64,000 nt of DNA from Gaoshiqia hydrogeniformans (GTDB lineage Bacteria > Bacteroidota > Bacteroidia > Bacteroidales > Prolixibacteraceae): NCBI RefSeq assembly GCF_049347105.1, contig NZ_CP186334.1, forward strand, positions 3,298,575 to 3,362,574, written 5' to 3'. Both the position numbers and the translations under genes were made by a program. Under the pieces are notes generated by a model that ran no database searches, was not told where the DNA came from, and was given only the letters and a program-made list of their open reading frames with translations. This document shows positions 2,495-64,000 of this stretch, in pieces; the first letter of the stretch is position 1; each line of letters opens with the position of its first letter.

Positions 2495-2517
2495 ATAAAA
2501 AAGAAAAAAAGATAGTT

Positions 2518-14927: not shown

Positions 14928-14932
14928 ACGCC

Positions 14933-40086: not shown

Positions 40087-40452
40087 ATGATGATACCGGT
40101 TATTGAGGGAACGCAATTCGGGATGATTACGATCTCGGGCAGACAATATAATTATGATGTGCTGATCCGCCTGAACGGGCAGATTGAAAAACGGAAAAAG
40201 AAATTATCGAAGGAGAAATACGGAACCTCGCATAAAATTTCGTTGGAAGAAGCAGTTACTATTTATGAGCCAGGAGCAAAACAACTCATTATTGGTACTG
40301 GTCAGATTGGCTATGTAAAGCTTTCAGAAGAGGCAGCTTCGTTTTTTAAGCAAAAGAATTGTCAGGTACGACTGGTTGATACCCTGCAGGCGGTTCACGT
40401 ATGGAATGCCGCTGAAGGAAAAGTAATCGGAATGTTCCATGTTACCTGCTGA
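40087..40452 (+). CDS. small conserved hypothetical protein (possibly Mth938-like fold)
   Basis: 121-aa ORF with protein-like composition and no signal peptide. The family guess is weak. Confidence 0.45.
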   Translation: MMIPVIEGTQFGMITISGRQYNYDVLIRLNGQIEKRKKKLSKEKYGTSHKISLEEAVTIYEPGAKQLIIGTGQIGYVKLSEEAASFFKQKNCQVRLVDTLQAVHVWNAAEGKVIGMFHVTC

Positions 40453-40470
40453 CTATTTTTTACTTAAAAC

Positions 40471-41784: not shown

Positions 41785-41831
41785 ACTTAAAACATAGAAT
41801 TCAGTAAAACCATTTCATATTTTTTTGGCAT

Positions 41832-42482
41832 ATGCTCATCATTTTTTCTAATTTTAACCGGGAAGAATGTGATCAAGTTGCGCCGGAATTTCTTATATTT
41901 ATTTCAGTCTGTCAGTTATTTCCTATGAGCGTACCCGATGAGAAGATCTTGATAAACGCATTGAAGCAAAGTGACAAGAATGCATTTGATGCAATCTATT
42001 ACAGATGTCACAAAAAGCTTTTTGCTTTCTCATTGAAATTTCTGAAAGACCGGGACGAAACGGAAGATCTGATCCAGAAAGTGTTTACCATTTTGTGGGA
42101 ACGCCGGTTGCATCTGGATGAAAATAAGTCGGTTGAAGGCTATCTTTTTCGGATCGTGCGGAACGAGATTTACGATATTTTAAAACTTCGGGCCATCCGC
42201 GGGCATTACAGCGATTATGTGGTTAACAGCCAGGAGGCAGATTTAGATGAGCTGGAAAAAAAGAAGATAATTGAGCAGGTTTTTCAGTTGGTTGATCATT
42301 TGCCTGAGCGGCGCGCTCAAATTTTCCGGATGAGTAAAGAAGAAGGATTAACTTACAGGCAGATTGCCGAAATTCTGCAGATCTCCGAAAATACGGTGGA
42401 TACCCAGATCCGCCACAGCCTCGATTATTTAAGAAAAGAAATGCACAAACTCAGGCTGATCATCCTGAGCATTCTCCCCTGA
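41832..42482 (+). CDS. RNA polymerase ECF-type sigma-70 factor (PUL regulator)
   Basis: Sigma-70 regions 2 and 4. Followed by FecR and a SusC with an N-terminal extension. The likely true start is the Met at 41925. Confidence 0.85.
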   Translation: MLIIFSNFNREECDQVAPEFLIFISVCQLFPMSVPDEKILINALKQSDKNAFDAIYYRCHKKLFAFSLKFLKDRDETEDLIQKVFTILWERRLHLDENKSVEGYLFRIVRNEIYDILKLRAIRGHYSDYVVNSQEADLDELEKKKIIEQVFQLVDHLPERRAQIFRMSKEEGLTYRQIAEILQISENTVDTQIRHSLDYLRKEMHKLRLIILSILP

Positions 42483-42576
42483 ATTCTTATTTTCTTCAGA
42501 ACCTCAAAAAAATAACTTTCCCTTTCACGGAAAGAAACGCTTTTCAGGTATTCTTCATTGTAGAATCACGAATACC

Positions 42577-43686
42577 ATGCAAAAGAAGAAGGAAATAAAA
42601 GAGCTCCTGGAACGGTTTTCTTTTGGGAAAATCAGTAAAGCCGAGCGAAAAATTGTATTCGATTTCTTTAATGATCCTGAGAATGAACCCCTTGTTTATG
42701 ACTGGATCGGCGAGAAATGGAATGAAACAGGTGCGGACGAATTAACGGCTGAATTTTCGTCGGCCGACTTACTCAACCGGATTCATCGGAAAATTGAACA
42801 GCAAAAACAGTCGGGAGTATCTGTGCTGAAAAAAGGAAATGCACGTTTGAGCCGAATTGCAAAAGTCGCGTTGCGTTATGCAGCGGTATGCCTGCTTGCC
42901 TGGGGCGCCCAATGGTATTGGCTGACACAGCTGTCTGAAAGCGCCGGATCACAAAGCTCTTACAACGAAATTGTTGTGCCGCACGGTTCAAAATCGATGA
43001 TCGTGTTGGGCGACAGTACCAAAGTATGGTTGAACGCCGGCGCCAGGTTTCGTTATCCAACCAATTTTGAACAAAAAGGAAGGGAAATTTTTCTCGAAGG
43101 GGAAGCTTATTTCGAAGTCCAAAAGGATGAACACCGCCCTTTTTTAGTCAACATGAACGGCATGAATATTAAAGTGCACGGAACCAAATTCAATGTCAGG
43201 GCCTATGCCGGAGATACCCGGATCGAAACGGCCCTGCTGGAAGGTTCGATCGAAGTGATCGGGGTAAAATCAGCGCAGGGCAACGACGATAATTTATTTC
43301 TTAAGCCGGGTCAGAAGCTGGTGCTGTTTAAGGAGATTAACCAAGATGATGCGATTTCGGATCATCAGGGAAACCGTTTTGGCGATTCGGCCCCGGTTAA
43401 AATAGCACGTGCAGAACTGACGAACCTGCTTAGCGCCGAAAACGAAATTGCCTGGTGTGCGGATAAGCTGGTATTTGAACGGCAACGGTTTGATGAAGTG
43501 AAAACCAAACTGGAACGCTGGTACGGCGTAACCATTGATATACAGGATTCGTCGGTCTTGAACTACCGGTTTACGGGAACCTTTGACCAGGAAACTTTTG
43601 AACAGGCCATTGGCGCCTTAAAACATGCCGCCTCGTTCGAATATGAATTAAATAAGAAACACGTGATCATTAGAAAAAACAAATAA
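42577..43686 (+). CDS. FecR-family anti-sigma factor
   Basis: TM helix, a FecR domain and a C-terminal DUF4974-like region; 369 aa. Confidence 0.85.
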   Translation: MQKKKEIKELLERFSFGKISKAERKIVFDFFNDPENEPLVYDWIGEKWNETGADELTAEFSSADLLNRIHRKIEQQKQSGVSVLKKGNARLSRIAKVALRYAAVCLLAWGAQWYWLTQLSESAGSQSSYNEIVVPHGSKSMIVLGDSTKVWLNAGARFRYPTNFEQKGREIFLEGEAYFEVQKDEHRPFLVNMNGMNIKVHGTKFNVRAYAGDTRIETALLEGSIEVIGVKSAQGNDDNLFLKPGQKLVLFKEINQDDAISDHQGNRFGDSAPVKIARAELTNLLSAENEIAWCADKLVFERQRFDEVKTKLERWYGVTIDIQDSSVLNYRFTGTFDQETFEQAIGALKHAASFEYELNKKHVIIRKNK

Positions 43687-43818
43687 ACGAACTTAAAAAT
43701 AGCGCCTATGTAAAAACTAAGCCTAACTAAAAAGTAGGGACCAACGAATGCACCACCATTCCCCGGTCCCCGTGTGTAAATTAATTCCAGATAAAAATTA
43801 TTAACACGTATCAATTCT

Positions 43819-46800
43819 ATGAAAAAAAATTATTACGTACAAGGGAGAGATGCATTAATTTCTCTCTCCGGAAAAATTTTATTAGTCATGAAACTAACTA
43901 TCGGAATGATCTTATTTTTTGTGTTTCAGGCTACCGCGGTCATTTCCCAGAACACGGTCGCAACCATAAATGTAAAAAACCTGGAAATGGACCGGTTCTT
44001 TACGGAAATTGAACGGCAAACCTCCGTGAAATTTCTTTACCGCTACGAGAATATTGAAGGGAAACGGGTCAGCGTTAACATGGAGAATGCAACCGTTGAT
44101 GAGCTTCTTGAAATGGCGCTTCAGGGCAAAGGGCTCGATTTCAGTAAAATGGGGCATAACCTGATCGTTATTTCCTCAGTAGCCGGTTCCGAACCATCCG
44201 CATCGATGCAAAGCAGGAGAGTAACGGGTAAGGTGACGATCGAATCCGGGCTGCCTTTGCCCGGAGTAGGCATTTCGATCCAGGGAACCACGACCGGAAC
44301 AATCTCCGACGGAGAGGGAAACTATAGTCTGGTGGTTCCGAACGACCAGGCTGTTCTTCACTTTTCATTTATCGGTTATACCCCGCAGGATATTCAGGTA
44401 GGAAGCCAAACAATCATAAATGTGGTGATGGTTGAAGAAAAACTGGCGATTGAAGAAGTGGTTGTTACGGCGCTGGGTATCGAAAAAAGTAAAAAGAGTC
44501 TGACCTATTCAACCCAGCAGGTCGATATCAACAGCCTGACGGCGATCAAAGATGTTAGCCTGGGGAACGCACTGGCCGGTAAAATCGCAGGAGTTTCCAT
44601 TACTGCCTCCACCGGGGCCAGCGGTGTTTCCGGAGATCCGCGTATCATCATCCGCGGCGACCGTACCATCAACGGGGTCGCTCAGCCCCTGGTGGTGGTT
44701 GACGGGATTCAGATGGGAACCAGCGGAGGCGAACTTTCGGGAATTAATCCCGATGATGTGCAAAGCATAAATGTGCTGAAAGGCCCTGCCGCTTCCGCCC
44801 TTTACGGATCAAACGCTCAAAACGGCGTAATTGTGGTGACTACAAAGAAAGGTAAAGCCGGAGCTGCAAAAATAGAAGTCAATTCTGTGACTACTTTCGA
44901 CTTGCCGTATCTGTATCCTGAGTTTCAAAACGAATATTCACAGGGAACCGGCGGCGCTTTTAATGCACAGGAGTTTGTGAAAAGCTGGGGGGTAAAAATG
45001 ACCGGGCAAACCGTGGTCGACTGGACAGGGAAAGAAACCAAGCTCTTGCCGCAACGCAATAATGTGAAGGATTTTTTCCGGACCGGAAATAATTTCACCA
45101 ACAGCTTTTCGTATAGTACCGGAACAGAGAAATCAACCACCTATTTTTCATACAGCAACACGGTGGCTCAGGGCGTTTTGGAAGATAACAGACTGACCCG
45201 GCACAATTTTAACATGCGTTTGAATACCGAACTGCTGAAAAACCTGAACATGGATTTTAAGATTACTTATTACCGCCAGCACCTGAACGACAAGCCGGTT
45301 ACCGGCGACGACTTGTTCAGCCCCATGTTCCAGTTGCTGAAAATGCCACGTAGTATCCGGACCGACGATATTAAAGCGGCTTCGTATTATGATAATGAAT
45401 TCTCGTTGAAACAATTAACCTGGGCTCCGGGCGCTACAGAAGTGGTGAACCCCTACTGGTCTGAAAAAGGTTACGAAGCGCCGGCTACTACCAACCGGGT
45501 AAACACCTTTTTGACCTTGCGCTACGATTTTGCCAGCTGGTTATATGTCCAGTTAAGAGGTGGAATGAATATCGCCAATAACGATGAAGAACGAAAAACC
45601 TATTGGGATACGCAGTATATTAACTCCGGACAAGGAAACTATTACACCAGGTTTGGCAAAAATCAAAATATCAACGGCGACGTTTTGCTGGTATTCAACA
45701 AAGAACTGGTAAAAAACCTGCGGTTGAATTTGAACCTGGGGGCCGAAATAAAAGATTCGCAGGCCCGGAGTATGGAATCGAACTCCAACGGGCTGACTGC
45801 GGAAAATAAATTTGCGTTGAGTTATGCCAAAAGTTTGGTCAGCACCGATGCCGAATCGCGCATTCAGCGTCAGTCTGTTTACGGGATGGGGCAACTAAGT
45901 TACCGTGATTTGTTATTTCTGGATGTCACGGCCCGGAACGACTGGAGCTCGACCCTGCCTGCGCCACATGATTATTTTTACCCTTCCGTTGGTTTAACTG
46001 CCGTAGTTTCCGATATGTTGACCTTACCGGAATTGATCTCTTTTGCCAAACTGCGCGGTTCTTATGCCGAAGTCGGTAACGGCGCCGGTTTTGCCCAGAT
46101 TTATAATACATACTCTGCCGCTGCAACGGGGCCGGTGGGAACATTCTATCCTTCAGGAACGAGAATGCCGATCGACCTGATTCCCGAAAAAACCAAATCA
46201 TGGGAGGCCGGAGGTGAAATCCGGTTTATGGATAACCGACTGGGGATTGACTTTACCTGGTACAAATCGAACACACTCAATCAGTTGATCCTGGTTGTTA
46301 CGCCTGCTACTTCAGGTTACAGCCAAAGCTGGATCAACTGCGGGAACATTCAAAACAAGGGGATTGAAGTGATGGTTAACGCCATACCTGTAAAAACTTC
46401 CGACTTTGACTGGTCAATTGATTTGAATTTCTCGAAGAACAAGAATAAGGTGGTTGAGTTGACCGATATCCAAAAGGAATATGAGGTTAGTTCGCCGAAC
46501 CTGTCACTTGGACAAACCTGGGCAATTGTAGGCAAACCGTTTGGCGAAATCTATACCTACGGTTATGTGAAAAATGACGCGGGGAAAATTATTGTTGATT
46601 CAAGCGGACTGCCAAAGATTGATTATTCGAACACGCCGACCCCCAATACATACCTGGGGAATTTTAATTATGACTGGCAAAGCGGGATGACCAACAATTT
46701 GCGTTATAAAAACTGGAATTTGACTTTCCTGATCGACCTGAATTATGGCGGGGTCCGGCAATCGGCTACCGAAGCCATGATGCTGGAAACCGGAACAAGC

Positions 46801-47193
46801 AAGGCTTCTCTCTTTGGCCGTGAAGGAGGTATCCTGATCGATGGTGTCAAAGATTCAGACGGAACGCCGAATGACATCCGGGTGGATGCCCAGACCTACG
46901 CTGCCGCCCTTGGCGGGCGCATCAGCAACGGGGCCGGAGAACCGTTTAGCCACGAGGCCACCAACTCGCGTTTGCGGGAGTTTTCAGTAGGTTACACGAT
47001 CCCGTTACGGAGCAATATGGTGAAATTGCTGAGGGTTTCCGCAGTAGGGCGTAACCTGTTTTACATCTATAACGGCTGTTCCTGGTTCGATCCCGATGTG
47101 ACTTATGATGTTGACCGGAACGGACAGGGAGCAGAAAGCGCCTTTTTGCCGGGTATGCGTACCGTGGGTGTTAATGTCCGGTTTACTTTATAA
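43819..47193 (+). CDS. SusC/RagA-family TonB-dependent receptor with an N-terminal anti-sigma-signalling (STN) extension
   Basis: 1124 aa containing a carboxypeptidase-regulatory domain, a plug domain and a beta-barrel. The C-terminus ends ...VRFTL. Followed by SusD. Confidence 0.9.
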   Translation: MKKNYYVQGRDALISLSGKILLVMKLTIGMILFFVFQATAVISQNTVATINVKNLEMDRFFTEIERQTSVKFLYRYENIEGKRVSVNMENATVDELLEMALQGKGLDFSKMGHNLIVISSVAGSEPSASMQSRRVTGKVTIESGLPLPGVGISIQGTTTGTISDGEGNYSLVVPNDQAVLHFSFIGYTPQDIQVGSQTIINVVMVEEKLAIEEVVVTALGIEKSKKSLTYSTQQVDINSLTAIKDVSLGNALAGKIAGVSITASTGASGVSGDPRIIIRGDRTINGVAQPLVVVDGIQMGTSGGELSGINPDDVQSINVLKGPAASALYGSNAQNGVIVVTTKKGKAGAAKIEVNSVTTFDLPYLYPEFQNEYSQGTGGAFNAQEFVKSWGVKMTGQTVVDWTGKETKLLPQRNNVKDFFRTGNNFTNSFSYSTGTEKSTTYFSYSNTVAQGVLEDNRLTRHNFNMRLNTELLKNLNMDFKITYYRQHLNDKPVTGDDLFSPMFQLLKMPRSIRTDDIKAASYYDNEFSLKQLTWAPGATEVVNPYWSEKGYEAPATTNRVNTFLTLRYDFASWLYVQLRGGMNIANNDEERKTYWDTQYINSGQGNYYTRFGKNQNINGDVLLVFNKELVKNLRLNLNLGAEIKDSQARSMESNSNGLTAENKFALSYAKSLVSTDAESRIQRQSVYGMGQLSYRDLLFLDVTARNDWSSTLPAPHDYFYPSVGLTAVVSDMLTLPELISFAKLRGSYAEVGNGAGFAQIYNTYSAAATGPVGTFYPSGTRMPIDLIPEKTKSWEAGGEIRFMDNRLGIDFTWYKSNTLNQLILVVTPATSGYSQSWINCGNIQNKGIEVMVNAIPVKTSDFDWSIDLNFSKNKNKVVELTDIQKEYEVSSPNLSLGQTWAIVGKPFGEIYTYGYVKNDAGKIIVDSSGLPKIDYSNTPTPNTYLGNFNYDWQSGMTNNLRYKNWNLTFLIDLNYGGVRQSATEAMMLETGTSKASLFGREGGILIDGVKDSDGTPNDIRVDAQTYAAALGGRISNGAGEPFSHEATNSRLREFSVGYTIPLRSNMVKLLRVSAVGRNLFYIYNGCSWFDPDVTYDVDRNGQGAESAFLPGMRTVGVNVRFTL

Positions 47194-47217
47194 TGTAAAA
47201 TTCTAAATCCCAAGAAG

Positions 47218-48846: not shown

Positions 48847-48883
48847 TTGTCTGAATTACCAACTAACTGTAACCATGATAAAA

Positions 48884-48920
48884 AACCTGACAGGCCCCAA
48901 AAACCTGTCAGGTTTATTTC
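48884..48920 (+). terminator. rho-independent terminator after susD
   Basis: 11-bp stem AACCTGACAGG / CCTGTCAGGTT with a 9-nt loop, followed by TATTT. Confidence 0.6.
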
Positions 48921-48980
48921 AACGTAACCGGCGTCGGTGATGACGCTGGCTTTAAATAATTTTCAGAAAATTGAACAACG

Positions 48981-50840: not shown

Positions 50841-50850
50841 ATCAAATGTT

Positions 50851-53511: not shown

Positions 53512-53517
53512 CAGGAG

Positions 53518-54594: not shown

Positions 54595-54631
54595 GCAAAA
54601 ATTTTACGTGAACAACTAAACCAAACATACC

Positions 54632-55753: not shown

Positions 55754-55758
55754 AACAA

Positions 55759-58700
55759 ATGAAGAAAATTTTGCTTCAGACCGGTATTATTTTGTTTTTA
55801 TTATTGCACGGATTTTTGCCAAAGGTCGCTGCAATCCGTTTTACCCCGCTTTATCCGGTTGGTAACTCAATTTCGCTGAACGGAATTTGGAAATTCAAAT
55901 ACATTCCTTCGAGCATGATTGGCCCCGATTCGATGTTTTATCCCGAGGGTTTTGAGGTTTCAAAATGGGACCATATAAAAGTCCCCGGACACTGGGAACT
56001 TCAGGGTTTTGCCGAACCCAAATACAAGTCGGTGGACGAGGGTACCGGCCTTTACCGTACCACTTTTACAGTGCCGGAATCGTTTCGTGAACGACAGGTT
56101 TTTATCCGGTTTGAAGGAGTCCAATATGCTTACGAAGTGTATGTAAACGGACAAAAAGCCGGCGAGTGGAGTAGTTCGTACAATGCAGCCAGTTTTAATA
56201 TCACGGATTTGGTGCAGCCCGGAAAAGAGAATACGTTGGCAGTAAGGGTTTCAACCCGTTCCAAAGGATATCAGTTCGACCTTAACGACTGCTGGGCTTT
56301 GTCGGGTATTTTTCGGGATGTGACCCTTTTCAGTACGCCGGATTTGCATATCGATGATTTCACGGTACAGACTTTTTTGAACAACGACCGGTCGGCCAAC
56401 ATAAGAATCGCTGTCAAACTTCAGGATGAGAAAAAAGAAATTTCAGGAAGTTATGTATTGAAGGCGATATTGAATTCTCCGGAAGGAAAAGTTGTTCAGG
56501 AAAAATCATGGGTGGCTCAAACAGAAAACAGCGCCGAATTGACTGTCAATTTTCCTGAATTGTGGACTGCCGAAACGCCGGCGTTGTATTCTCTTGCGCT
56601 TTCATTACTGAAGGATGGCAACGAAATACAGCGCGTCAATCAGAAAGTGGGCATCCGGGAAGTCAAAATCGACGGCACCGTTTTGAAGCTGAACGGGAAA
56701 GCTCTCAAGCTGCGCGGTGTCGATCACCACGACCTGGTGCCGGAAACCGGCAGGACACTCAGCAGGGAACAGATTCTGAACGATTTGTTGCTGATGAAAA
56801 GGGCGAATATCAATTTTGTTCGCACCTCGCATTATCCATCCGACCGCCGGACGCTGGATGTGTGCGACAGCCTGGGCTTTTATGTGATTTGCGAGGTTCC
56901 TTTCGGCTTTGGGAACAGCTTTCTGGAAGATTCAAGCTATCAGAATATACTTTTAACACGTGCCAAGGCAACCTTGTTACGCGATAAAAACCATCCTTCG
57001 GTAATTTTGTGGAGCTTGGGAAATGAAAATCCGGTAACACCGATAACCAATATTACTGCCCAATATGTAAAAACAACCGATCCAACACGTCCGGTCTGTT
57101 ATCCTCAAATGGGTTCGTATTTCAACGAGAATTATCAAAACATCCCCGATTACATGGATGTTTACGCTCCACATTACCGTGATGCTGAATGGGTAAAAAG
57201 CTTTGCTAAGGAAACCAACCGCCCGGTAATCATGACCGAGTACGCCCACGCGCTGGGCCTGGCTTTTGGCAATATGGCCAGTATCTGGAAAGAAATGTTC
57301 CGCAACGAAGCGTTTGCCGGCGGCGCAGTGTGGCATTTTCACGATCAGGGAATTCTGCGGAAAGCTGAAAAACCGGTCGATACCAGTCAACTGGCTTACG
57401 ATGTGTGGATTGATTCGCTGAATTATTACAACACCACCCTCGATGGCGCCGATGGCATTGTGTATGCCGACCGTACTCCTCAAACCGACTATTGGCAGGT
57501 GCGAAAAGTTTATTCGCCGGTGCAGGTGATTGAAAAGGAGATCAACGTCGTTCAGGGGAAACAGGAAGTGAATGTTACGGTTTATAATCAGTACGATTTT
57601 ACCAACCTGAATACGCTGTCCGGAACCTGGGAATTGTTCCGCAACCGTGAAGTAATTCAGCAGGGCGGGTTAAAAATAAACTGCGCGCCACACGATACCG
57701 TCCGTGTTTCTATCCCCTGTACTATTGCCGAAAATCCTGAAAATGCCGTTTGGCTGCTCCGGCTCCGCTTCAGCGACCCCGACAGGATCCCGGTGTTTGA
57801 ACATACCATCCGGTTGTCAACCGAAAATCAGATGGAAGCTATTTTTAAAGCAATCCGGGAAGGACTGCCTGTAAAACATGTGAAAATCAGCGGTGAAGAC
57901 AACGAAACAATCCTCAAAACAAAAGATTTTATCTGCACCATCCACGACGGTACCATGCCGGTGTCGCTGGTTTCCCGAAAACGAAAAGCAGAATTGCTGA
58001 ACAGCGAAATTTATGTCCGCACAGGACGTATCCCGCAAATGGCCGATGTAACAGTCAGGGACAGGTTTTTCCCCGAAACCGGCGATTATTATTGGGAACC
58101 GCATCTGCTAAAATCCTCGCGGACCGCCGTTTCTGAAACAAAAAACACCACAGACGAATATCAGGTATTGGCAAATAAAACATTCAGAAGGGGCGAGAAT
58201 TTTCCGGGACAAAAAATAGAAGCCGGATTTTTGTATACCCTCAAAAACAACGGGATATTGGAACTCAATTATAACTTATCTCCCGAGAACTGTACCGGAT
58301 TTTTTCTTGAAGCCGGAGTTTCGCTGATCCTGCCTGCGACAACCGATCAGTTCTTATGGTTGGGCGACGGGCCGTATGTTTCGTATCCCGAAAAGAACGA
58401 ACTGAACGATTTTGGAATCCACCAGATTCATAAAGAAGACCTGAATTTCAAAGGAAACCGCACCAATGTAGAGATCGCTGTTCTTACTGACCGTAAAGGA
58501 AATGGATTGGCCCTGCTGGGCGATCAGAAAAATATTTCAGTCGAACTACGGAACAATCAGGTCGTGGTAAGCCACAATTCAATAGTATCCGGAGTGGGCA
58601 ATAAAAAGAACATGCCTACGCCTGTTTTTCCGGCGAACGATATTTCTTCTATCAGCGGGAAACTCGAAATTATTCCGTTGGTTGAAGGCCGGTGGCCGGA

Positions 58701-58785
58701 AAAGCTGAAGGAAATTTTCGGGGCGGAAATAAAGCCGGTTATTCCGTTCAAACCATTTTATTACAGTTACGATACCAGTTATTAG
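55759..58785 (+). CDS. GH2-family glycoside hydrolase (beta-galactosidase/beta-mannosidase-like)
   Basis: Signal peptide, a GH2 sugar-binding N-terminal domain and a TIM barrel with the acid/base motif WSLGNE; 1008 aa. Confidence 0.8.
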   Translation: MKKILLQTGIILFLLLHGFLPKVAAIRFTPLYPVGNSISLNGIWKFKYIPSSMIGPDSMFYPEGFEVSKWDHIKVPGHWELQGFAEPKYKSVDEGTGLYRTTFTVPESFRERQVFIRFEGVQYAYEVYVNGQKAGEWSSSYNAASFNITDLVQPGKENTLAVRVSTRSKGYQFDLNDCWALSGIFRDVTLFSTPDLHIDDFTVQTFLNNDRSANIRIAVKLQDEKKEISGSYVLKAILNSPEGKVVQEKSWVAQTENSAELTVNFPELWTAETPALYSLALSLLKDGNEIQRVNQKVGIREVKIDGTVLKLNGKALKLRGVDHHDLVPETGRTLSREQILNDLLLMKRANINFVRTSHYPSDRRTLDVCDSLGFYVICEVPFGFGNSFLEDSSYQNILLTRAKATLLRDKNHPSVILWSLGNENPVTPITNITAQYVKTTDPTRPVCYPQMGSYFNENYQNIPDYMDVYAPHYRDAEWVKSFAKETNRPVIMTEYAHALGLAFGNMASIWKEMFRNEAFAGGAVWHFHDQGILRKAEKPVDTSQLAYDVWIDSLNYYNTTLDGADGIVYADRTPQTDYWQVRKVYSPVQVIEKEINVVQGKQEVNVTVYNQYDFTNLNTLSGTWELFRNREVIQQGGLKINCAPHDTVRVSIPCTIAENPENAVWLLRLRFSDPDRIPVFEHTIRLSTENQMEAIFKAIREGLPVKHVKISGEDNETILKTKDFICTIHDGTMPVSLVSRKRKAELLNSEIYVRTGRIPQMADVTVRDRFFPETGDYYWEPHLLKSSRTAVSETKNTTDEYQVLANKTFRRGENFPGQKIEAGFLYTLKNNGILELNYNLSPENCTGFFLEAGVSLILPATTDQFLWLGDGPYVSYPEKNELNDFGIHQIHKEDLNFKGNRTNVEIAVLTDRKGNGLALLGDQKNISVELRNNQVVVSHNSIVSGVGNKKNMPTPVFPANDISSISGKLEIIPLVEGRWPEKLKEIFGAEIKPVIPFKPFYYSYDTSY

Positions 58786-58809
58786 TCAAATAAATTAAAA
58801 CCTGGGAAT

Positions 58810-60858
58810 ATGAACGTTACAGAAAAAATAGGCTCATTCAGACAGGCTCTTCGGTGGGTAGTTGCTGTCTTATTTTTGTTTTCCTGTTCGCCCCAAAAAC
58901 CAAGTTCGGAAAATGAAGCGGAAAAACAAACCTTGCGCCGCAGCGACAGTTTTTTTGGTTTGCACTTCGATTTTCATGCAAACAAAAACGACAGTACTGT
59001 CGGGAAAACGTTTACCGCAGAAATGATCGACAGCCTGCTGACGATGGTTCAGCCCGATTATATCCAGGTTGATTGCAAGGGGCATCCCGGTATTTCGAGC
59101 TACCCGACAAAGGTGGGAAACGCCGCCCCGGGATTTGTGAAAGATCCGCTGAAAATATGGCGCGAAGTGACCCGTAAGCATAAGGTGGCGCTGTTTGTCC
59201 ACTACTCGGGCGTGTGGGACGATGCCTCGGCGGAAAAACACCCGGAATGGATGGCGCTGAACGCTGAAGGGAAAAAAATTGGTGGCAGAATATCGGTGAA
59301 AGGCCCGTATGTTGACAGCCTGCTGATTCCGCAGTTTAAGGAGCTGATTGACAATTACGATATCGATGGTTGCTGGATCGACGGCGAATGCTGGGCGTTG
59401 CAGGCGGATTACAGCCCGAAAATGATCAGCGCCTTTCGCGCCGAAACCGGCATCCGGCAAATTCCAAAATCATTCTCCGATCCGGGCGGTTACGAGTTCA
59501 ACGAATTTAACCGGAAGGCCTTCCGGCAGTATGTGGCGCATTACACCGACGTATTACACCGCTACAATCCCGAATTTCAGGTCACCAGCAACTGGGCGTT
59601 TTCGTCGCACATGCCTGAACCGGTTGACATTAACATCGATTTTATTTCGGGCGATTTTAGCCATGTGAACAGCGTGTACAGCGGTTTTTTCGAGTCGCGT
59701 TGCATCGCGCCGCAGGGAAAGCCCTGGGATCTGATGGCCTGGAGTTTTGCTTACAACTTTAACACCGGGGTGCCAATCACCAAATCGGCGGCACAGTTAA
59801 AACAATTGGCTGCCACCGTAATGTCGATGGGCGGCGGTTATCAGGTTTATTTTCAGCAAAACCGCGATGCTTCACCGCAACCCTGGCAATTTGGTTTAAT
59901 GAAGGAAGTGGCCGGATTTTGCCGCGAACGCCAGCCGTTCTGCCAGAATGCAAAACCGGTTCCGCAGGTTGCCCTGCTCTATTCTTCTGAAAATTATAAG
60001 AAATTCACCCGCGGGATTTACTCAAATTCTTCGGTAAACGAACCGCTGCGCGGAATGCTGAATCTGCTCCTGAACGGACAGAACGCCGTGGAAATACTGA
60101 TGGAGCACCACCTGAAAGGAAGGATGCTGGAGTATCCGTTGATTGTGATTCCGGAATGCCGTTACCTGGCCGATGATTTTAAAACTGAATTACTTGCGTA
60201 TGTGGAGAATGGCGGCAATCTGCTGGTGGTGGGTGCCGGCGCGACAGCTTTGTTTACCGATGCCCTGAACGTTGAATTTTCAGACACAGCAGTGTCAACC
60301 CAGTTTTTGGCATACAAGAACGAAATGGCCGGCATCAATACGCTGTTTCAGCCGGTTAAACTGAAGGAGGGCGCCACCGCCTTCGGGTCTCGGTATCCCG
60401 CTTCCGATTTGCGTTTTCCGTCGTCGCCGGCTGCTTCGGTTGCCTCTTATGGGAAAGGTAAAATAGCCGGTGTTTATCTCGATATTTCAAAGAAATACAA
60501 CGAAACCGCCAACCCGGTTTACCGCGATTTTGTCGGTTCCATTGTCCGCGAACTTTTTCCTGCTCCGGTTGCCGGGGTGAAAGGTTCGGCGAATGTGGCG
60601 GTTACCGTTAACCGGTTGGGCGTAAAACTGGCCGTCAACCTGATTAATACCTCGGGCGACCATTCCAACGAAAAAGTGGCCCGTTACGATGAAATTCCTG
60701 CCGTCGGTCCGCTCTCTGTGAAAATCAGGACGGAAAAAGCGCCGCGGAAACTTTTGCTCCAGCCTGAAAATCTCGCACTGGATTTTACCTTTTCCAACGG
60801 AGTAGTGGAGACCACTGTCGACCGGCTTGTCATTCATTCTATTCTTGTTTTGGATTAA
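58810..60858 (+). CDS. divergent TIM-barrel glycoside hydrolase, GH29-like (alpha-L-fucosidase-like) by motif arrangement
   Basis: Lipoprotein-like N-terminus. The segments FGLHFDFH...DYIQVDCKGHPGISSYPTKVG...YDIDGCWIDGECW parallel the GH29 blocks (FGLFIHWG...KHHDGF..WPS...DxxWFDG.W) but are strongly diverged. Confidence 0.4.
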   Translation: MNVTEKIGSFRQALRWVVAVLFLFSCSPQKPSSENEAEKQTLRRSDSFFGLHFDFHANKNDSTVGKTFTAEMIDSLLTMVQPDYIQVDCKGHPGISSYPTKVGNAAPGFVKDPLKIWREVTRKHKVALFVHYSGVWDDASAEKHPEWMALNAEGKKIGGRISVKGPYVDSLLIPQFKELIDNYDIDGCWIDGECWALQADYSPKMISAFRAETGIRQIPKSFSDPGGYEFNEFNRKAFRQYVAHYTDVLHRYNPEFQVTSNWAFSSHMPEPVDINIDFISGDFSHVNSVYSGFFESRCIAPQGKPWDLMAWSFAYNFNTGVPITKSAAQLKQLAATVMSMGGGYQVYFQQNRDASPQPWQFGLMKEVAGFCRERQPFCQNAKPVPQVALLYSSENYKKFTRGIYSNSSVNEPLRGMLNLLLNGQNAVEILMEHHLKGRMLEYPLIVIPECRYLADDFKTELLAYVENGGNLLVVGAGATALFTDALNVEFSDTAVSTQFLAYKNEMAGINTLFQPVKLKEGATAFGSRYPASDLRFPSSPAASVASYGKGKIAGVYLDISKKYNETANPVYRDFVGSIVRELFPAPVAGVKGSANVAVTVNRLGVKLAVNLINTSGDHSNEKVARYDEIPAVGPLSVKIRTEKAPRKLLLQPENLALDFTFSNGVVETTVDRLVIHSILVLD

Positions 60859-60883
60859 ATTGAAAACTAAATAGTTAATAACC

Positions 60884-61798
60884 ATGAAAAAATATTCTTC
60901 CCTTTTATTGACGGCCATTTTGTTGGTCGTTGCGGCAACAGCAATCGGTCTGGAGTCAGTTGCCAAAACAAAAAAAATACCGCATGTTTTGATCATCGGT
61001 ATTGATGGGCTGGGTGCCCACGGGCTTGAAATGGCGAATACGCCGCATCTCGATGAATTGATGAAAAACGGATCATACTCGCTTACTGCCCGTACAATTA
61101 TGCCCAGTAGCAGCGGGCCGGCCTGGAGTTCGATGATTACCGGAACAACTGTTGAACGGCACGGGGTGGGCAACAACGGCTGGACGGTTGGCAACAAAGC
61201 ACTGGAACCGGTTTACAAGGGGAAATACAACATGTTCCCCACTATTTTTGGAGAGATCCGTGATCATTCCCCGGAGGCTGTTATTGGCGCCATTTATCAC
61301 TGGAAAAGTTTTGGCAATTTTATAGAACCTGGGGTTTGTAACCTCAGTATTCCCTGCGAGTCGGAAGAAGAAGCGACCCAAAAAACCTGTGATTTACTGA
61401 AAGAAAAACGTCCGAACTTTACATTTATCCATCTCGATTTGGTTGATCATGGCGGTCATCACGGCGGCTATCGTTCCGAAGAATATGCCCGGTCAATTGA
61501 AAAAGCTGACAGTTTGGTTGGGGTACTCATCGGCCAGCTCCGGGAAATTAACATGTTTGAGCAAACCGTTGTTTTTGTGGTTTCCGATCATGGCGGCCTC
61601 GAGAAAAAACACGGAGGATTGAGTCCAGATGAAATGATTGTTCCTTTCATCATTTCGGGGAAAGGAGTTAAAAAAGGATACAAAATTGAACACCCGTCTT
61701 TTACTTACGACCTGGCGCCAACCGTGGCCTGGCTGTTTGGATTTGAACTGAACGAATGGGTAACGGGCAAACCTCTTAAAAATGTCTTCTCAAAATAA
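60884..61798 (+). CDS. secreted alkaline-phosphatase-superfamily phosphodiesterase (NPP / type I phosphodiesterase-like)
   Basis: Signal peptide and metal-site motifs IIGIDGLG and VVSDHGG; 304 aa. Confidence 0.75.
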   Translation: MKKYSSLLLTAILLVVAATAIGLESVAKTKKIPHVLIIGIDGLGAHGLEMANTPHLDELMKNGSYSLTARTIMPSSSGPAWSSMITGTTVERHGVGNNGWTVGNKALEPVYKGKYNMFPTIFGEIRDHSPEAVIGAIYHWKSFGNFIEPGVCNLSIPCESEEEATQKTCDLLKEKRPNFTFIHLDLVDHGGHHGGYRSEEYARSIEKADSLVGVLIGQLREINMFEQTVVFVVSDHGGLEKKHGGLSPDEMIVPFIISGKGVKKGYKIEHPSFTYDLAPTVAWLFGFELNEWVTGKPLKNVFSK

Positions 61799-61816
61799 CG
61801 TTAAAATCATCATGCC

Positions 61817-64000
61817 ATGTTCAGGTTAATCCGAAATAGATTCTTTCATGTTTTACTGCTGACATTCTTTTTTACTTTCGGGGAGTCATATGCCTCCGGT
61901 CTTTTGATAAAGGCAGATGTTTCATGCAAAATTTGGTGGGCTGGAACGACTTGCAAAGTCATGCGCGACGATCCGGTTCCTGCCAAAAATGGGAAAATCA
62001 TTCTTCAGTCGGCCCAAAACGAATTCGAAAGTTTCCAGCTTGTTTTGTCGCCCAAAGCAGATATGGAGGACATTTCGGTTGCAGTAACTGGTTTTACAAC
62101 TAAAAGTGGGCAAACAGTTCCTGCTGAAAATATTACCGTCCGTAAAGTGGAATATGTTCATATTGCCAAACCGTCGGGTACTCGCCACCAAGCCGGCTGG
62201 TATCCCGACCCGCTACCGCTGTTGGAAAAAACGTTCAGTGCAAAAGCCGGAATGAATACGCCAATCCTGATTTCGGTAAAAGTTCCAAAAGATGCGGCTC
62301 CCGGGGTTTATTCCGCACATATCAGTCTGAAATCGGCTGCCTGGGAAACGACTGTTCCTGTCGAACTGAAGGTATGGGATTTTACTTTGCCTGACTCTCC
62401 GTCCATGCGTTCCGCTTTTGGTTTGTATTCCGACCAAATCAGAACTTACCATAATCTCAGCAACGATGATGAACTGAAGCAGGTGTTGGATTTGTATTAT
62501 CAATCGTTCAGGGATTACCGAATCTCGCCGCAACAGTTTTTCGACCAATATCCCATTGAAAAAACGGTGAAAGGTGTTTGGTGGAAGGGCGGCACATTCG
62601 ATCCCGACACGGTTTTTGCAGGTAAATATTCGTACCAGGTAACCGGCAATAATCCCGGTATGCCTGCCGAACTGATCGAAGTAAACCCGGAAAAACCTTA
62701 CTGGCTGAAATGGCAGGCCAAAACATTCAGTGAGGGACAGGAATACCTGGTAACCGTCAAAAGTTACACTGCCGATAAAAAAGTAATTCCCTGGCAGCTT
62801 CAGGGAATGTTTTATACCGGCAGCGCCCGGTGGAAAACAGACAGCCTTTTTCTTGATCCGGTGAACCCGCTTGTTTACGAAGATATGGTTTTGTCGCGCC
62901 CGATGCCTAAAAACACCCGGTATGCGAGTGTTCAGCTTTTTTCGGTAAAGCCCGACGAAAGCGGGAGCAAAAGCGGAACCGCGTGGTTCGACAATGTGCA
63001 GTTTGTGGACGTTGCTACGGGAGAGAACCTTTTGCCTGAGGGCGATTTTGAGCATAACATCGATGACCTGCAAATGGAAATTGATTTTTCAGAATTTGAT
63101 GTGGCCGCCCGCAGATACCTGGACGAATTTGGGTTTACCGGCTTTCGGGTGAAAATTCCGGAACTGAGGCCGGGGCCGTTTATCAACCGGAAAACCGGCT
63201 GGTTCGCGGGGTTTGTCAATGGCACCGCGGAATACGAAAAATTGATCACGCTTTACCTGAAAGGTTTTCAGGATCATCTGGAAACCAACGGCTGGCTTGG
63301 GAAAGAGTACCTTTACTGGGTTGACGAACCCAAACACGAAGATTACGGTTTTGTGCGCGAAGGCATGGAAACGATTCACAAAGCCGCGCCCAAACTGACC
63401 CGTCTGATCACCGAAAACAATCCGGGGCCCGAAATCATGGATGTGACCGAGATCGGCTGTCCGGTATTGGCCAAGTTCGATCCGGTAAAGTCGAAAGTTT
63501 GGATTGCCAACGGACGACAAATGTGGTCGTACCTGATGACCTGGCCCAAAGCACCTCATGTCAACCTGTTTATCGATTCCGATGCCATGAATTTGCGGAT
63601 GTGGTTGTGGATGTCGTACCGCTACCGGTTGACCGGGATCCTGGTTTGGAGTTCGAATGTTTGGAATACCAAAAGTTGCTCGCCGCCGGGAGTTTTGCAG
63701 AATATATGGGACGACCCGATGACCTACATGAGCGGAAGCCTGACAACGCCGGGAGCAGCAGCAGAATACGGCAACGGCGACGGCATGTTCTTTTATCCGC
63801 CCAACCGCGACCCGAACAATGACAAAACAAAATACATGACCGGCCCGGTTCCTTCACTCCGGCTTGAAATTATGCGCGAAGGAATTGATGATTACGATTA
63901 CATGATGTTATTGGAAGATTGTATCAGAAATGCCCGGCCCGATCAGCAGAACCTGGTCAAAAAAGCAAAACAGGTGTTGAACTTCGGCACCGAAGTATTT
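61817..64000 (+). CDS. large secreted glycoside-hydrolase-like protein (DUF4091/GH123-like guess), 3' end beyond the window
   Basis: Uninterrupted protein-like frame of about 728 codons from the ATG at 61817 to the window end. It has a signal peptide (LLLTFFFTFGESYA) and Trp-rich conserved blocks. It is not in the supplied ORF track because no stop codon falls within the window. Confidence 0.5.
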   Translation, partial: MFRLIRNRFFHVLLLTFFFTFGESYASGLLIKADVSCKIWWAGTTCKVMRDDPVPAKNGKIILQSAQNEFESFQLVLSPKADMEDISVAVTGFTTKSGQTVPAENITVRKVEYVHIAKPSGTRHQAGWYPDPLPLLEKTFSAKAGMNTPILISVKVPKDAAPGVYSAHISLKSAAWETTVPVELKVWDFTLPDSPSMRSAFGLYSDQIRTYHNLSNDDELKQVLDLYYQSFRDYRISPQQFFDQYPIEKTVKGVWWKGGTFDPDTVFAGKYSYQVTGNNPGMPAELIEVNPEKPYWLKWQAKTFSEGQEYLVTVKSYTADKKVIPWQLQGMFYTGSARWKTDSLFLDPVNPLVYEDMVLSRPMPKNTRYASVQLFSVKPDESGSKSGTAWFDNVQFVDVATGENLLPEGDFEHNIDDLQMEIDFSEFDVAARRYLDEFGFTGFRVKIPELRPGPFINRKTGWFAGFVNGTAEYEKLITLYLKGFQDHLETNGWLGKEYLYWVDEPKHEDYGFVREGMETIHKAAPKLTRLITENNPGPEIMDVTEIGCPVLAKFDPVKSKVWIANGRQMWSYLMTWPKAPHVNLFIDSDAMNLRMWLWMSYRYRLTGILVWSSNVWNTKSCSPPGVLQNIWDDPMTYMSGSLTTPGAAAEYGNGDGMFFYPPNRDPNNDKTKYMTGPVPSLRLEIMREGIDDYDYMMLLEDCIRNARPDQQNLVKKAKQVLNFGTEVF

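Follow-up and report, generated by a model that had tools for sequence, protein, structure and literature searches.

A phosphoesterase-rich PUL of Gaoshiqia hydrogeniformans that probably targets glycans with phosphate esters

A single operon for regulation, uptake and eight secreted enzymes

We analyzed a window of 64,000 nucleotides from Gaoshiqia hydrogeniformans (the window is this whole stretch of DNA, and all positions refer to it). Twelve genes lie at 41832-64000, all on the + strand and tightly packed, and we read them as a single operon. The first four encode an ECF sigma factor, the FecR-type anti-sigma factor, an STN-bearing SusC and SusD, and the next eight encode secreted enzymes. 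Three of these enzymes are phosphoesterases; they come from unrelated superfamilies, and in all three the metal site is intact. Pfam, NCBIfam and PDB comparisons, from which the genes were assigned, bear out the same inventory as proposed by a first, sequence-only reading. That reading had also placed signal peptides on all of the enzymes. Indeed, when the translations were inspected by eye, a hydrophobic signal sequence was present at the N-terminus of all eight, and lipoprotein lipoboxes were present in the GH78 enzyme (LFTGC) and in a 682-amino-acid GHL6/GH151-like protein (LFSC).

Beyond the first enzyme, the enzyme genes are separated by only 5-37 nt, and a scan for intergenic terminator-like sites found none inside the enzyme block. 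Independent expression of the phosphoesterases had been named as counter-evidence; as far as can be judged from the DNA, there is no sign of it. The 134-nt gap between SusD and the first phosphoesterase gene contains a hairpin with a perfect 15-bp stem (48883..48915, no strand assigned), which could act in attenuation or in stabilizing the RNA.

Immediately upstream, an IS4-type DDE transposase gene (40591..41667, - strand; Pfam DDE_Tnp_1 and DUF4372) bounds the locus on the left and has no role in its function; GC content is down to 38% across 40001-42000. On the right, the window stops within the locus, which almost certainly extends beyond base 64000, because in the closest relative (L002) the genes for the GH2, NPP-like and GH123-like enzymes are followed by GH92. 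A GH92 alpha-mannosidase is probably encoded just outside the window in Gaoshiqia as well.

The ECF-type sigma factor (41832..42482, + strand; Pfam Sigma70_r2 and Sigma70_r4_2) also heads the homologous loci, so its position is conserved. It is followed on the same strand by the FecR-type anti-sigma factor (42577..43686; Pfam FecR and FecR_C) and by a SusC/RagA TonB-dependent transporter (43819..47193; 625.6 bits against TIGR04056, cut-off 368). The transporter has an N-terminal STN signalling domain (Pfam, 29.7 bits, cut-off 28.4) along with CarbopepD_reg_2/CarboxypepD_reg and Plug domains. The SusD-like lipoprotein (47218..48846, + strand) is of the PF12741 type (Pfam SusD-like, E = 3.7e-109). 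Control by an ECF sigma factor, an anti-sigma factor and an STN-containing SusC would fit substrate-specific induction.

Three unrelated phosphoesterases

The first enzyme (48981..50840, + strand) is a metallophosphoesterase related to purple acid phosphatases (PAPs) and PhoD, and it carries a PA14 domain; we refer to it as MPE-PA14. It comprises an FN3-like N-domain, the catalytic domain (Pfam Metallophos, 70.5 bits), a beta domain and, at the C-terminus, PA14 (60.1 bits). The best Foldseek matches of its AF2 model (pLDDT 90) were lupin PPD1, wheat PAP phytase, kidney-bean PAP, and PhoD. MPE-PA14 has in common with plant-type PAPs, PPD1 and PhoD the FN3-like and catalytic domains and the metal-ligand motifs GDxxG, GD, GNHE, H and GHxH, but the identity is only ~18%, the tyrosine spacing of the PAP motif GDxxY is changed (GDLVQY), and the beta domain, the PA14 domain and the bacterial PUL setting are additional. 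Residues D131, D159, N193, H194, H259, H304 and H306 are invariant across 42 homologues. The family is small: at E<=1e-30 it numbers 176 proteins among 5.8 billion. That PA14 is fused to the putative phosphatase is an argument that the enzyme recognizes glycans. Promiscuity, on the other hand, is notorious among PAP-like and AP-superfamily enzymes.

The second phosphoesterase (54632..55753, + strand) is a secreted PHP-family protein that ends in an Ig-like domain. We assign it to the 3E38/Sb-PDE family (PDB 3E38, E = 4.4e-88), and a homologue that is 65% identical carries the NCBI name "Sb-PDE family phosphodiesterase". None of the nine ligands of the trinuclear site varies in any of 113 homologues. 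Both characterized members of the family (Sb-PDE, No-PDE) are true phosphodiesterases (PMC5460133, PMC11656708), and their architecture is that of the Gaoshiqia protein and 3E38: a signal peptide, a PHP domain in which the nine ligands are complete, and a beta domain at the C-terminus. This makes the Gaoshiqia protein a candidate phosphodiesterase. However, the characterized enzymes act on xenobiotic flame-retardant diesters in Sphingomonadaceae (PMC5460133, PMC11656708), whereas the Gaoshiqia protein is encoded in a glycan-utilization operon; and they are only about 30-36% identical to the rest of the family.

The third (60884..61798, + strand) is a minimal, NPP-like member of the alkaline phosphatase superfamily (PF01663; Pfam Phosphodiest, 110.5 bits) with a serine nucleophile. 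In Foldseek, its AF2 model (pLDDT 95) matched NPPs (ENPP5, ENPP7, Xac NPP) as well as S1 sulfatases, with identities of 13-18% and a TMq near 0.75, so by fold it is as distant from the sulfatases as from the NPPs. D41, H192, D235, H236 and H243 are invariant, and conservation is 90% or higher at S77, D185 and D188. Three NPP-like relatives (P0308, P0310 and P0311) also carry fused modules of the glycan-binding type, PA14 or Fn3_assoc.

Five glycosidases

The remaining enzymes, all on the + strand, are glycosidases. The GH78 alpha-L-rhamnosidase lipoprotein (50851..53511) has five Pfam rhamnosidase domains and matches PDB 6I60 (E = 9.5e-102). Next to it is a protein of 358 amino acids (53518..54594) that had been described only as a beta-propeller glycosidase. 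The propeller, which is five-bladed, stands, and the protein can now be placed more precisely as a GH137 homologue: it matches NCBIfam NF049877 over positions 11-359 (E = 4e-144) and the N-domain of BT0996 (PDB 5MT2/5MUI) over its whole length (E = 2.4e-110). It is thus a candidate beta-L-arabinofuranosidase.

The GH2 enzyme (55759..58785) resembles LacZ-type beta-galactosidases (Pfam GH2 N, middle and C domains, LacZ_4, and Bgal_small_N; 505 bits against NF052611, below the cut-off of 999). The 682-amino-acid TIM-barrel lipoprotein (58810..60858), with a GH42M-like middle domain, had been labeled GH29-like, but it is closer to GH151/GHL6. Its Pfam matches are all below the curated cut-offs (GHL6, 29.6; Alpha_L_fucos, 25.1; GH42M, 21.8), and residues 50-191 match the GH151 fucosidase 6TVK (E = 3.4e-9), so it is possibly alpha-L-fucosidase-like. 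Finally, a GH123-like protein, formerly DUF4091, runs from 61817 to the window end at 64000 (Pfam GH123_cat, 76.1 bits, and GH123 N-terminal domains). It is similar to the beta-N-acetylgalactosaminidases 8K2J/8K2F (E = 3e-24), and its D503-E504-P lines up with the DEP of 8K2J. As full-length homologues have 758-776 amino acids, we read it as truncated by about 30 amino acids.

Phosphoesterases are the conserved core of related loci

We compared about 30 related loci, 15 of which are informative in that each has at least 4 kb of downstream sequence. MPE-PA14 lies directly behind SusC/SusD in 14 of these 15. Its partners are GH92 (8 loci), GH123-like (7), NPP-like (6), PHP (4), GH78 (4), and GH137 (3), and their order is shuffled between loci. 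As the same combination of genes recurs, reshuffled, in roughly 20 independent loci from MAGs and metagenomes, it goes beyond chance. The cluster is conserved among sediment Bacteroidota, and one cultured carrier is Mariniphaga sediminis (GCA_003573545.1).

A second phosphoesterase is present in nearly every related locus, and L008 reaches four families (MPE, PHP, NPP and EEP); L029 adds GDPD and EEP; L014 and L024 each have an extra Metallophos, and L028 an extra PAP-like enzyme. In Flavitalea, a phosphoesterase is fused to Fn3_assoc/CHB_HEX_C and PA14. This pattern of recurrence implies that the phosphoesterases are core and the rhamnosidase is accessory, and from these comparisons the core of the family appears to be MPE-PA14, GH123-like, GH92, and NPP-like or other phosphoesterases. 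The proposal of a phosphorylated, rhamnose-containing target therefore holds in part. Because they share an operon and recur jointly across genera, the phosphoesterases are integral to the PUL, but rhamnose is not supported as a defining residue, as GH78 is in only 4 of the 15 informative loci.

The glycosidase content varies strongly from locus to locus, so a single glycan is not implied. The accessory genes of the relatives (YhhN, which is in three loci, GDPD, PIG-L/CE14, EEP, and PhnW/PhnX) point at least equally to head-group-decorated or lipid-linked glycoconjugates as to the conceivable targets of the first reading, namely rhamnose wall polymers of Gram-positive bacteria, teichoic acids and phosphomannan.

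Comparison with known systems and alternative explanations

The gene content, the packing of the operon, the conserved catalytic sites, and the recurrence of the partners in shuffled order are established, and from them we infer that the locus probably serves glycans or glycoconjugates with phosphate-ester substituents or phosphodiester bridges. There is experimental precedent in MAN-PUL1-3 of Bacteroides thetaiotaomicron, where the phosphatases BT3783 and BT2630 act with the GH92 enzyme BT2629 on phosphorylated mannan (Cuskin et al. 2015, PMC4978465). In these SusCD-based yeast alpha-mannan PULs, a secreted phosphatase and exo-glycosidases including GH92 remove the mannose-1-phosphate and phosphate decorations (PMC4978465). 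Relatives of the Gaoshiqia locus also contain GH92 and, in L008 and L029, an EEP-fold enzyme. However, the yeast-mannan PULs have a defined substrate and are dominated by GH76, GH125, GH99, GH38 and GH92, whereas GH76, GH125 and GH99 are lacking here. Furthermore, phosphatases of a single family (EEP fold) are a minor accessory in the yeast-mannan PULs, while MPE-PA14 is the invariant signature gene of loci that have three to four unrelated families.

Two relatives in which no recognizable glycosidase was found keep another explanation alive: SusCD and the phosphoesterases might serve mainly to obtain phosphate from organophosphorus compounds, for example nucleic acids, sugar phosphates or the head groups of lipids, in response to phosphate limitation, with the glycosidases as add-ons that clear sugars for phosphate access. 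L031 has SusCD, MPE-PA14, YhhN and a distant PHP protein, and L030 has SusCD, MPE-PA14 and an unknown protein, so the module can exist apart from glycan depolymerization. Both resemble the Pus type, as do L009 and L010, in which more distant PHP homologues lie in SusCD loci with phosphoesterases and without CAZymes. This is the pattern of the PusCD systems of Flavobacterium (Lidbury et al. 2021, PMC8115612) and of 576 CAZyme-less susC/D loci with PF00149 or PF01663 (Lapebie et al. 2019, PMC6499787), which share with the Gaoshiqia locus SusC/D-like transporters and periplasmic phosphomono- or diesterases of the same Pfam families. One relative also has PhnW and PhnX, a phosphorus-yielding pathway. 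In contrast, the described Pus clusters have no CAZymes and are induced by phosphate depletion (PMC8115612). The Gaoshiqia operon has at least five glycosidases, its ECF sigma/FecR/STN-SusC regulation looks substrate-specific and not Pho-type, and the fused PA14 domain speaks for a glycan. We consider it unlikely that phosphorus acquisition is the main function, but the two explanations are not mutually exclusive.

It is quite improbable that the locus instead targets plant pectin or arabinogalactan side chains like RG-II chain B (beta-L-Araf, alpha-L-Rha, beta-Gal and fucose), with the "phosphoesterases" either recruited to non-phosphate chemistry (other esters, or sulfate) or irrelevant passengers. 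In the RG-II PUL of B. thetaiotaomicron, reportedly described by Ndeh and colleagues in 2017, BT0996 is said to be a GH137/GH2 protein and BT1001 a GH78. The Gaoshiqia locus likewise has a GH137 homologue, very close to BT0996, beside GH78 (as do L003 and L011), plus GH2 and the fucosidase-like enzyme. This module plausibly removes a beta-L-Araf/alpha-L-Rha cap. Other chemistry might be suggested by the NPP-like fold, equidistant from sulfatases, and by a match of the PHP protein to the CehA/McbA metallohydrolase model (67.4 bits, short of the cut-off of 80). However, the trinuclear site of the PHP protein is fully conserved, and the NPP-like enzyme retains its ligands for two metals and reads SGPAW, without the arginine of the sulfatase motif C/S-x-P-x-R. 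A well-known non-phosphorylated glycan had been named as possible counter-evidence, but the match to RG-II is only superficial: Pfam found neither the other RG-II-specific families nor a pectate lyase in the window, and the family core is GH123-like, GH92 and phosphoesterases, with GH78 and GH137 as accessories. GH92 is not known to have a role in pectin, and with the GH123-like partners it makes a poor fit. We know of no phosphoesterases in the RG-II system.

Least credible is the scavenging of extracellular DNA, RNA or nucleotides imported via SusCD: although PF00149 and PF01663 loci have been so interpreted (PMC6499787), NPP and PPD1 relatives hydrolyze nucleotides, and PUL-like ribose-utilization systems can target nucleosides (10.1101/574913), Pfam and NCBIfam identified no nuclease, nucleoside hydrolase or ribokinase in the locus within the window, the NPP-like enzyme falls about 100 residues short of the aligned bacterial NPP cores and has GPAW for their FPNH motif, and the PA14 fusions and constant company of glycosidases would be left unexplained.

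If the targets are indeed phosphate-ester glycans, then SusD and SusC would capture and import substrate fragments, and the STN domain of SusC would signal to FecR to free the sigma factor, as suggested by the domain architecture and by established knowledge of ECF-type PULs. Based on family biochemistry and the intact metal sites, the PHP (Sb-PDE-family) and minimal AP-superfamily enzymes would remove the alcohol or head-group side of phosphodiesters, or cleave sugar-1-phosphate bridges. The PAP/PhoD-like metallophosphoesterase, tethered to the glycan by PA14, would take off the remaining phosphate. The exo-glycosidases would next strip the exposed sugars: beta-L-Araf (GH137), alpha-L-Rha (GH78), beta-Gal (GH2), a fucose-like residue (GH151-like), beta-HexNAc (GH123-like), and alpha-Man, by the GH92 that is probably encoded just beyond the window. 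Beyond yeast mannan, we know of no characterized cluster of this kind for phosphate-ester glycans. Jointly with this interpretation, we think that the region is probably a member of a small, conserved, ECF-sigma-controlled PUL family of the Prolixibacteraceae, with outliers in the Saprospiraceae and Chitinophagaceae.

A PUL with three types of phosphoesterase

From position 41832 to the end of the window, our ORF listing and our Pfam, NCBIfam, and PDB sequence searches reveal a single array of plus-strand genes. The array begins with an ECF sigma factor, a FecR-type anti-sigma factor, a SusC/RagA protein with an N-terminal STN domain, and a SusD-like protein. These are followed by a metallophosphoesterase of 619 amino acids with PA14 as its C-terminal domain (48981-50840; MPE-PA14), a GH78 protein, a 358-aa propeller protein (53518-54594), and a 373-aa PHP-domain protein (54632-55753). 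The array continues with a LacZ-type GH2, a 682-aa TIM-barrel protein (58810-60858), a 304-aa protein of the alkaline-phosphatase superfamily (PF01663; 60884-61798), and a GH123_cat protein (the former DUF4091), whose gene is truncated by the window end.

This array is a PUL, with adjacent susC- and susD-like genes, co-oriented CAZymes, and a dedicated ECF sigma/anti-sigma/STN regulator. The SusC protein matches TIGR04056 (625.6 bits), and the SusD-like gene begins 24 nt on (Pfam SusD-like, E = 3.7e-109). In Pfam, the regulators show Sigma70_r2 and r4_2, FecR and FecR_C, and STN (29.7 bits vs. a cut-off of 28.4). The GH78, GH137-like, GH2, GH123-like, and GH151/GHL6-like genes are all on the same strand, and the gaps between enzyme genes are 5-37 nt. 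By inspection, 8 of the 8 enzymes start with a signal sequence, and the GH78 and 682-aa proteins have a lipoprotein lipobox. The sequence-only reading had described a PUL that combines glycosidases with three types of phosphoesterase, and it had assigned signal peptides to the enzymes. Given the searches, the gene spacing, and the signal sequences, both descriptions are correct.

We did not find a terminator-like site between the genes of the enzyme block. The sole strong hairpin has a perfect 15-bp stem (AAACCTGACAGG...CCTGTCAGGTTT; 48883-48915) and lies in the 134-nt gap between the SusD and phosphoesterase genes, where it could act in attenuation or could make the susCD transcript more stable than that of the enzyme genes. 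A scan for sigma-70 promoters was uninformative (19 sites vs. 22 expected); Bacteroidota promoters deviate from that consensus.

Directly upstream of the PUL is an IS4-type DDE transposase (40591-41667, minus strand), with a dip in GC content to 38%. Transposases (ISL3, IS110, and DUF772) also flank homologous PULs from other genomes (L026, 230-2093; L008, 20357-21128; and L029, 1798-3135). This hints that this type of PUL is mobile or lies in plastic regions.

Two other features of the window are separate from this locus. Positions 821-9005 hold the tail of a second, unrelated PUL, with a SusD (821-2494), a DUF5060/GH5-like protein (3236-4891), a GH130 (5070-6371), an MFS sugar transporter (6421-7797), and a GlcNAc-2-epimerase-fold protein (7797-9005). 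This gene set is the classic one of a beta-mannan or manno-oligosaccharide system. Also, a 2208-aa ORF (22803-29429) combines HYR, PKD, and InlK_D3 repeats with a C-terminal sorting domain of the T9SS, and it probably encodes a secreted adhesin built of repeats. The stretch that holds it is raised in GC content (52-57% vs. about 45% around it), and a 1180-aa shadow ORF is present on the opposite strand.

The phosphoesterases

The structural model of MPE-PA14 (pLDDT 90) contains an FN3-like domain, the catalytic domain, a beta domain, and PA14, which spans residues 480-619 or so. In Foldseek searches, its closest folds were those of plant purple acid phosphatases (PAPs), the diphosphonucleotide phosphatase/phosphodiesterase PPD1, and PhoD, and the matches to PPD1, wheat phytase, and kidney-bean PAP had E values of 1e-18 to 8e-21. 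The model thus predicts a PAP-type FN3-like N-terminal domain along with a metallophosphoesterase fold. The Pfam match to Pur_ac_phosph_N is weak (21.4 bits vs. a cut-off of 30). The PAP pattern comprises seven metal ligands, spread over the motifs GDxG, GDxxY, GNH(D/E), VxxH, and GHxH. In MPE-PA14, D131, D159, N193, H259, H304, and H306 are invariant among homologues; the tyrosine of GDxxY is shifted by one residue (GDLVQY) and is less than 90% conserved in a wider alignment.

The PHP-domain protein is closely related to PDB 3E38 (E = 4e-88), and a homologue that is 65% identical bears the NCBI name "Sb-PDE family phosphodiesterase." Using the nine-ligand pattern for the trinuclear site of this family (PMC11656708), we found H56, H58, D63, H88, E123, H132, H167, D224, and H226 in every one of 113 homologues. 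Within the Sb-PDE/3E38 family, selective phosphodiesterase activity has been shown for Sb-PDE and No-PDE only, and no function has been assigned to the other members, 3E38 among them (PMC5460133, PMC11656708). Conservation does not extend to the residues of the substrate pocket, even for No-PDE vs. 3E38 (PMC11656708).

The model of the PF01663 protein (pLDDT 95) shows a minimal core of the alkaline-phosphatase superfamily. In a fold search it was equidistant from NPPs and sulfatases (13-18% identity, TMq about 0.75). The two-metal site of the superfamily is present: D41, H192, D235, H236, and H243 are invariant, and conservation reaches 90% or more for D185 and D188. NPPs have a threonine nucleophile in the motif T-F-P-N-H. 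The corresponding motif here is instead S77-G-P-A-W, and the protein has 304 amino acids vs. about 380 for the bacterial NPP core. It does not combine a threonine nucleophile in T-F-P-N-H with nucleotide-binding inserts, as an NPP proper does. We refer to it as NPP-like. It is unlikely to be a sulfatase because of its set of two-metal ligands and because it does not have the arginine of C/S-x-P-x-R. Three homologues (P0308, P0310, and P0311; 42-44% identical) are fused to Fn3_assoc and CHB_HEX_C modules. P0310 also carries a PA14 module, which parallels the PA14 fusion of the metallophosphoesterase.

The glycosidases

The sequence-only reading had listed a "beta-propeller glycosidase." The protein is indeed a propeller, and its label can be refined to GH137-like: it matches the N-terminal domain of BT0996, a GH137 beta-L-arabinofuranosidase, at E = 4e-144 (NCBIfam NF049877), and its residues 20-358 match the crystal structures of that domain at E = 2.4e-110. 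This full-length homology to the sole characterised member of GH137 makes the propeller a candidate beta-L-arabinofuranosidase. The 682-aa protein had been described as GH29-like, and we relabel it as GH151/GHL6-like. Every Pfam match was below threshold (for Alpha_L_fucos, 25.1 bits vs. a cut-off of 25.2), and among solved structures the closest is the GH151 fucosidase 6TVK (E = 3.4e-9), in an alignment that spans residues 50-191 only (about 140 residues). Finally, the GH123-like protein matches GH123_cat in Pfam (76.1 bits vs. a cut-off of 23.1), and its D503-E504-P aligns with the DEP of the beta-N-acetylgalactosaminidase 8K2J. We take this Asp-Glu pair to be catalytic in GH123. With both the catalytic domain and the Asp-Glu pair, this protein is predicted to be a glycosidase.

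Related loci

We gathered about 30 loci around homologues of MPE-PA14 and the PHP protein, using species-representative genomes, metagenomes, and exact-sequence look-ups. We mapped the proteins of the window and some additional neighbours onto these loci and annotated the other genes. MPE-PA14 proteins form a small family, with 176 members at E ≤ 1e-30 among 5.8 billion proteins. The window derives from a member of Prolixibacteraceae. One Logan contig holds identical sequence, and the relatives from MAGs are 64-71% identical. We also sought exact matches to the NPP-like and 682-aa proteins, with the aim of reaching beyond base 64000, and these look-ups returned no match. Despite the failed look-up, the gene for the 682-aa protein, at least, is present on the identical Logan contig (L001, 44 kb), at its fetched edge. 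The failures for the products of 58810-60858 and 60884-61798 may reflect a gap in the index or a small sequence difference downstream.

In 14 of the 15 informative loci (those for which 4 kb or more of sequence lies downstream), MPE-PA14 is encoded behind a SusC/SusD pair, usually with an ECF sigma factor and FecR at the head. The partner genes recur in shuffled order: GH92 is found in 8 of these 15 loci, GH123-like in 7, NPP-like in 6, PHP and GH78 in 4 each, and GH137 in 3. Rarer partners are SGNH esterase, BNR/sialidase-like, GH2, GH151-like, GH31, GH95, GH3, and melibiase. GH137 and GH78 are adjacent in the window and in two related loci (L003 and L011). Nearly every locus encodes at least one further phosphoesterase. 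For example, L008 combines MPE, PHP, and NPP-like enzymes with one of the EEP fold; L029 adds GDPD and EEP; L014 and L024 have a second Metallophos protein; and L028 has a second PAP-like enzyme. The phosphoesterases are thus no passengers but form the conserved core of this type of locus, with the glycosidases as a variable periphery.

Proposed function

The most economical model for the locus has three steps. First, the diesterase-type enzymes (PHP and alkaline-phosphatase family) would remove a distal alcohol or head group or would open sugar-1-phosphate bridges. Second, the PAP/PhoD-like enzyme, tethered by its PA14 domain, would take off the remaining phosphate. Third, exo-glycosidases would break down the exposed glycan. 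In this organism, these would include GH137 and GH78, as a module for a beta-L-Araf/alpha-L-Rha cap; other sugars of the glycan would be beta-Gal, a fucose-like residue, beta-HexNAc, and probably alpha-Man. We infer all of these steps from the families of the proteins, the intactness of their active sites, and the neighbouring genes. The best support goes to the general idea of the sequence-only reading, namely a target glycan that bears phosphodiester or phosphomonoester groups. Its emphasis on rhamnose and its named candidates, such as rhamnose-rich Gram-positive wall polysaccharides and fungal phosphomannan, are not supported because GH78 is an accessory gene.

The closest experimental precedent is the degradation of yeast mannan, in which two phosphatases, BT3783 and BT2630, work on phosphorylated mannan together with BT2629, a GH92 enzyme (PMC4978465). 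That alpha-mannan PUL relies on GH76, GH125, GH99, and GH38 as its backbone enzymes (PMC4978465), but Pfam identified none of these in the window locus or in the related loci that we scanned. Its GH92 and its EEP sugar phosphatase do not lie inside the window, which ends before the position of GH92 in the related locus L002, and we predict GH92 as the next gene beyond the window. Both do occur among the related loci, EEP in L008 and L029.

The strongest alternative is that the locus acquires phosphate, like the phosphate utilisation systems (Pus) of Flavobacterium. These are induced by phosphate depletion and combine a SusCD-like pair with phosphomono- and diesterases, without CAZy-type hydrolases (PMC8115612). 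Furthermore, 576 susC/D loci without CAZymes contain PF00149 or PF01663 (PMC6499787). The window locus does have Metallophos, PHP, and PF01663 proteins downstream of SusCD, and two of the related loci have no recognisable glycosidase, which favours this alternative: L031 (Draconibacterium) encodes SusCD, MPE-PA14, a YhhN-family protein, and a distant PHP, and L030 (Flavitalea) encodes SusCD, MPE-PA14, and one protein of no assigned family. More distant PHP homologues are also found in loci of SusCD plus phosphoesterases. However, the phosphoesterase genes of the window are interspersed with at least five genes for glycosidases, and the PA14 fusions and the ECF/STN regulation also argue against phosphate acquisition as the sole explanation. 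The ECF/FecR regulator suggests that a substrate controls the locus. The two readings overlap.

Side chains of RG-II or pectin are suggested as the target by the presence of GH137, GH78, and GH2 together. The remaining enzymes for RG-II are GH138-143, GH127, GH106, GH95, GH28, PL1, and others. Pfam found none of those named among the ORFs of the window, and GH92, the GH123-like protein, and the phosphoesterase core do not fit either, so we reject this explanation. Scavenging of nucleic acids is a further reading, for which the window locus lacks any nuclease or nucleoside-processing gene.

Returning to phosphorylated glycans as the target, some accessory genes of the related loci bear on what kind of glycan this might be. 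Between its GH137 gene and its GH3/BNR/GH151-like genes, L017 encodes PhnX (phosphonoacetaldehyde hydrolase; 13215-14021; TIGR01422, 324 bits vs. a cut-off of 220) and PhnW (2-aminoethylphosphonate transaminase; 14481-15593; NF010006, 518 bits vs. a cut-off of 296), both above their NCBIfam equivalog cut-offs. We did not find PhnW or PhnX elsewhere in the window or the 25 loci that we searched, so this lead to phosphonates rests on one locus. A YhhN-family membrane protein lies inside three PULs (L006, 14508-15209; L029, 13527-14240; and L031, 11919-12620), and in L031 it is directly 3' of the MPE-PA14 gene. YhhN is a lysoplasmalogenase family (PMC9052158), is unusual in PULs, and suggests a lipid-linked substrate. 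L028 encodes a PIG-L/CE14 deacetylase. Some recurrent proteins are orphans. A protein of about 590-620 amino acids, with an N-terminal RRSF motif that resembles a twin-arginine export signal, is 57-65% identical across five PULs, including one from Saprospiraceae (L006, 15302-17074; L005, 20399-21859; L012, 8486-10348; L014, 14233-16092; and L029, 15885-17753). This protein has no match in Pfam, in NCBIfam, or among PDB sequences. Recurrent orphans, including unk590, unk556, unk563, unk416, and unk366, had no significant matches in Pfam; nor did unk590, unk416, and unk366 in NCBIfam, or unk590 among PDB sequences.

The PhnWX, YhhN, GDPD, EEP, and CE14 proteins point at least as much to glycoconjugates that bear head groups or are linked to lipids. 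A bolder proposal, which we think is probably wrong, is that PULs with MPE-PA14 are the first dedicated catabolic system for glycoconjugates that bear phosphate or phosphonate head groups or are linked to lipids via phosphate. It draws on PhnW and PhnX in L017, YhhN in L006, L029, and L031, GDPD and EEP in L029, EEP in L008, and PIG-L/CE14 in L028. The substrates would be glycans with phosphoethanolamine, phosphocholine, glycerol-phosphate, or 2-aminoethylphosphonate, such as GPI/GIPC-type anchors, lipoteichoic-acid-like polymers, phosphono-glycans of protists or invertebrates, or microbial exopolymers esterified with phosphonates. The PHP enzymes of the 3E38 clade and the minimal alkaline-phosphatase-family enzymes would then be the long-sought hydrolases that free the head group from the sugar, and the PAP-PA14 enzyme would clear the residual phosphate. 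If so, the 3E38 clade would gain a natural function.

Significance

Bacteroidota break down complex carbohydrates mainly by way of PULs, and to our knowledge, nearly all of the characterised PULs target neutral, acidic, or sulfated glycans. Glycans with phosphate esters are abundant in microbial and eukaryotic biomass, where they occur as phosphomannans and teichoic-acid-like polymers, as the head groups of GPI/GIPC, and as glycans that carry phosphoethanolamine, phosphocholine, or phosphonate. How environmental heterotrophs break them down is little understood; the process links the carbon cycle of sediments to their phosphorus cycle.

We found no published description of the MPE-PA14 type of PUL in the literature that we searched, which was covered incompletely, so this absence is not proof of novelty. 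The type combines known concepts (PULs, phosphatases within PULs, and Pus systems), and its interest is limited by the thousands of PULs of unassigned specificity. If it merely scavenges phosphate, with accessory glycosidases, then it would extend the Pus concept and would be less remarkable. It also brings together a conserved signature enzyme, a family of diesterases without a natural function, several proteins of no recognisable family, and, in a single locus, a link to phosphonate catabolism. Its cultured carriers are Mariniphaga sediminis, with the locus at QWET01000001.1, 65214-87100, and Membranihabitans maritimus, with the locus at JAJSLW010000001.1, 185048-206979. A conserved family of PULs with a predicted glycan-tethered phosphatase at its core is a concrete and testable entry point into the breakdown of phosphate-ester glycans.
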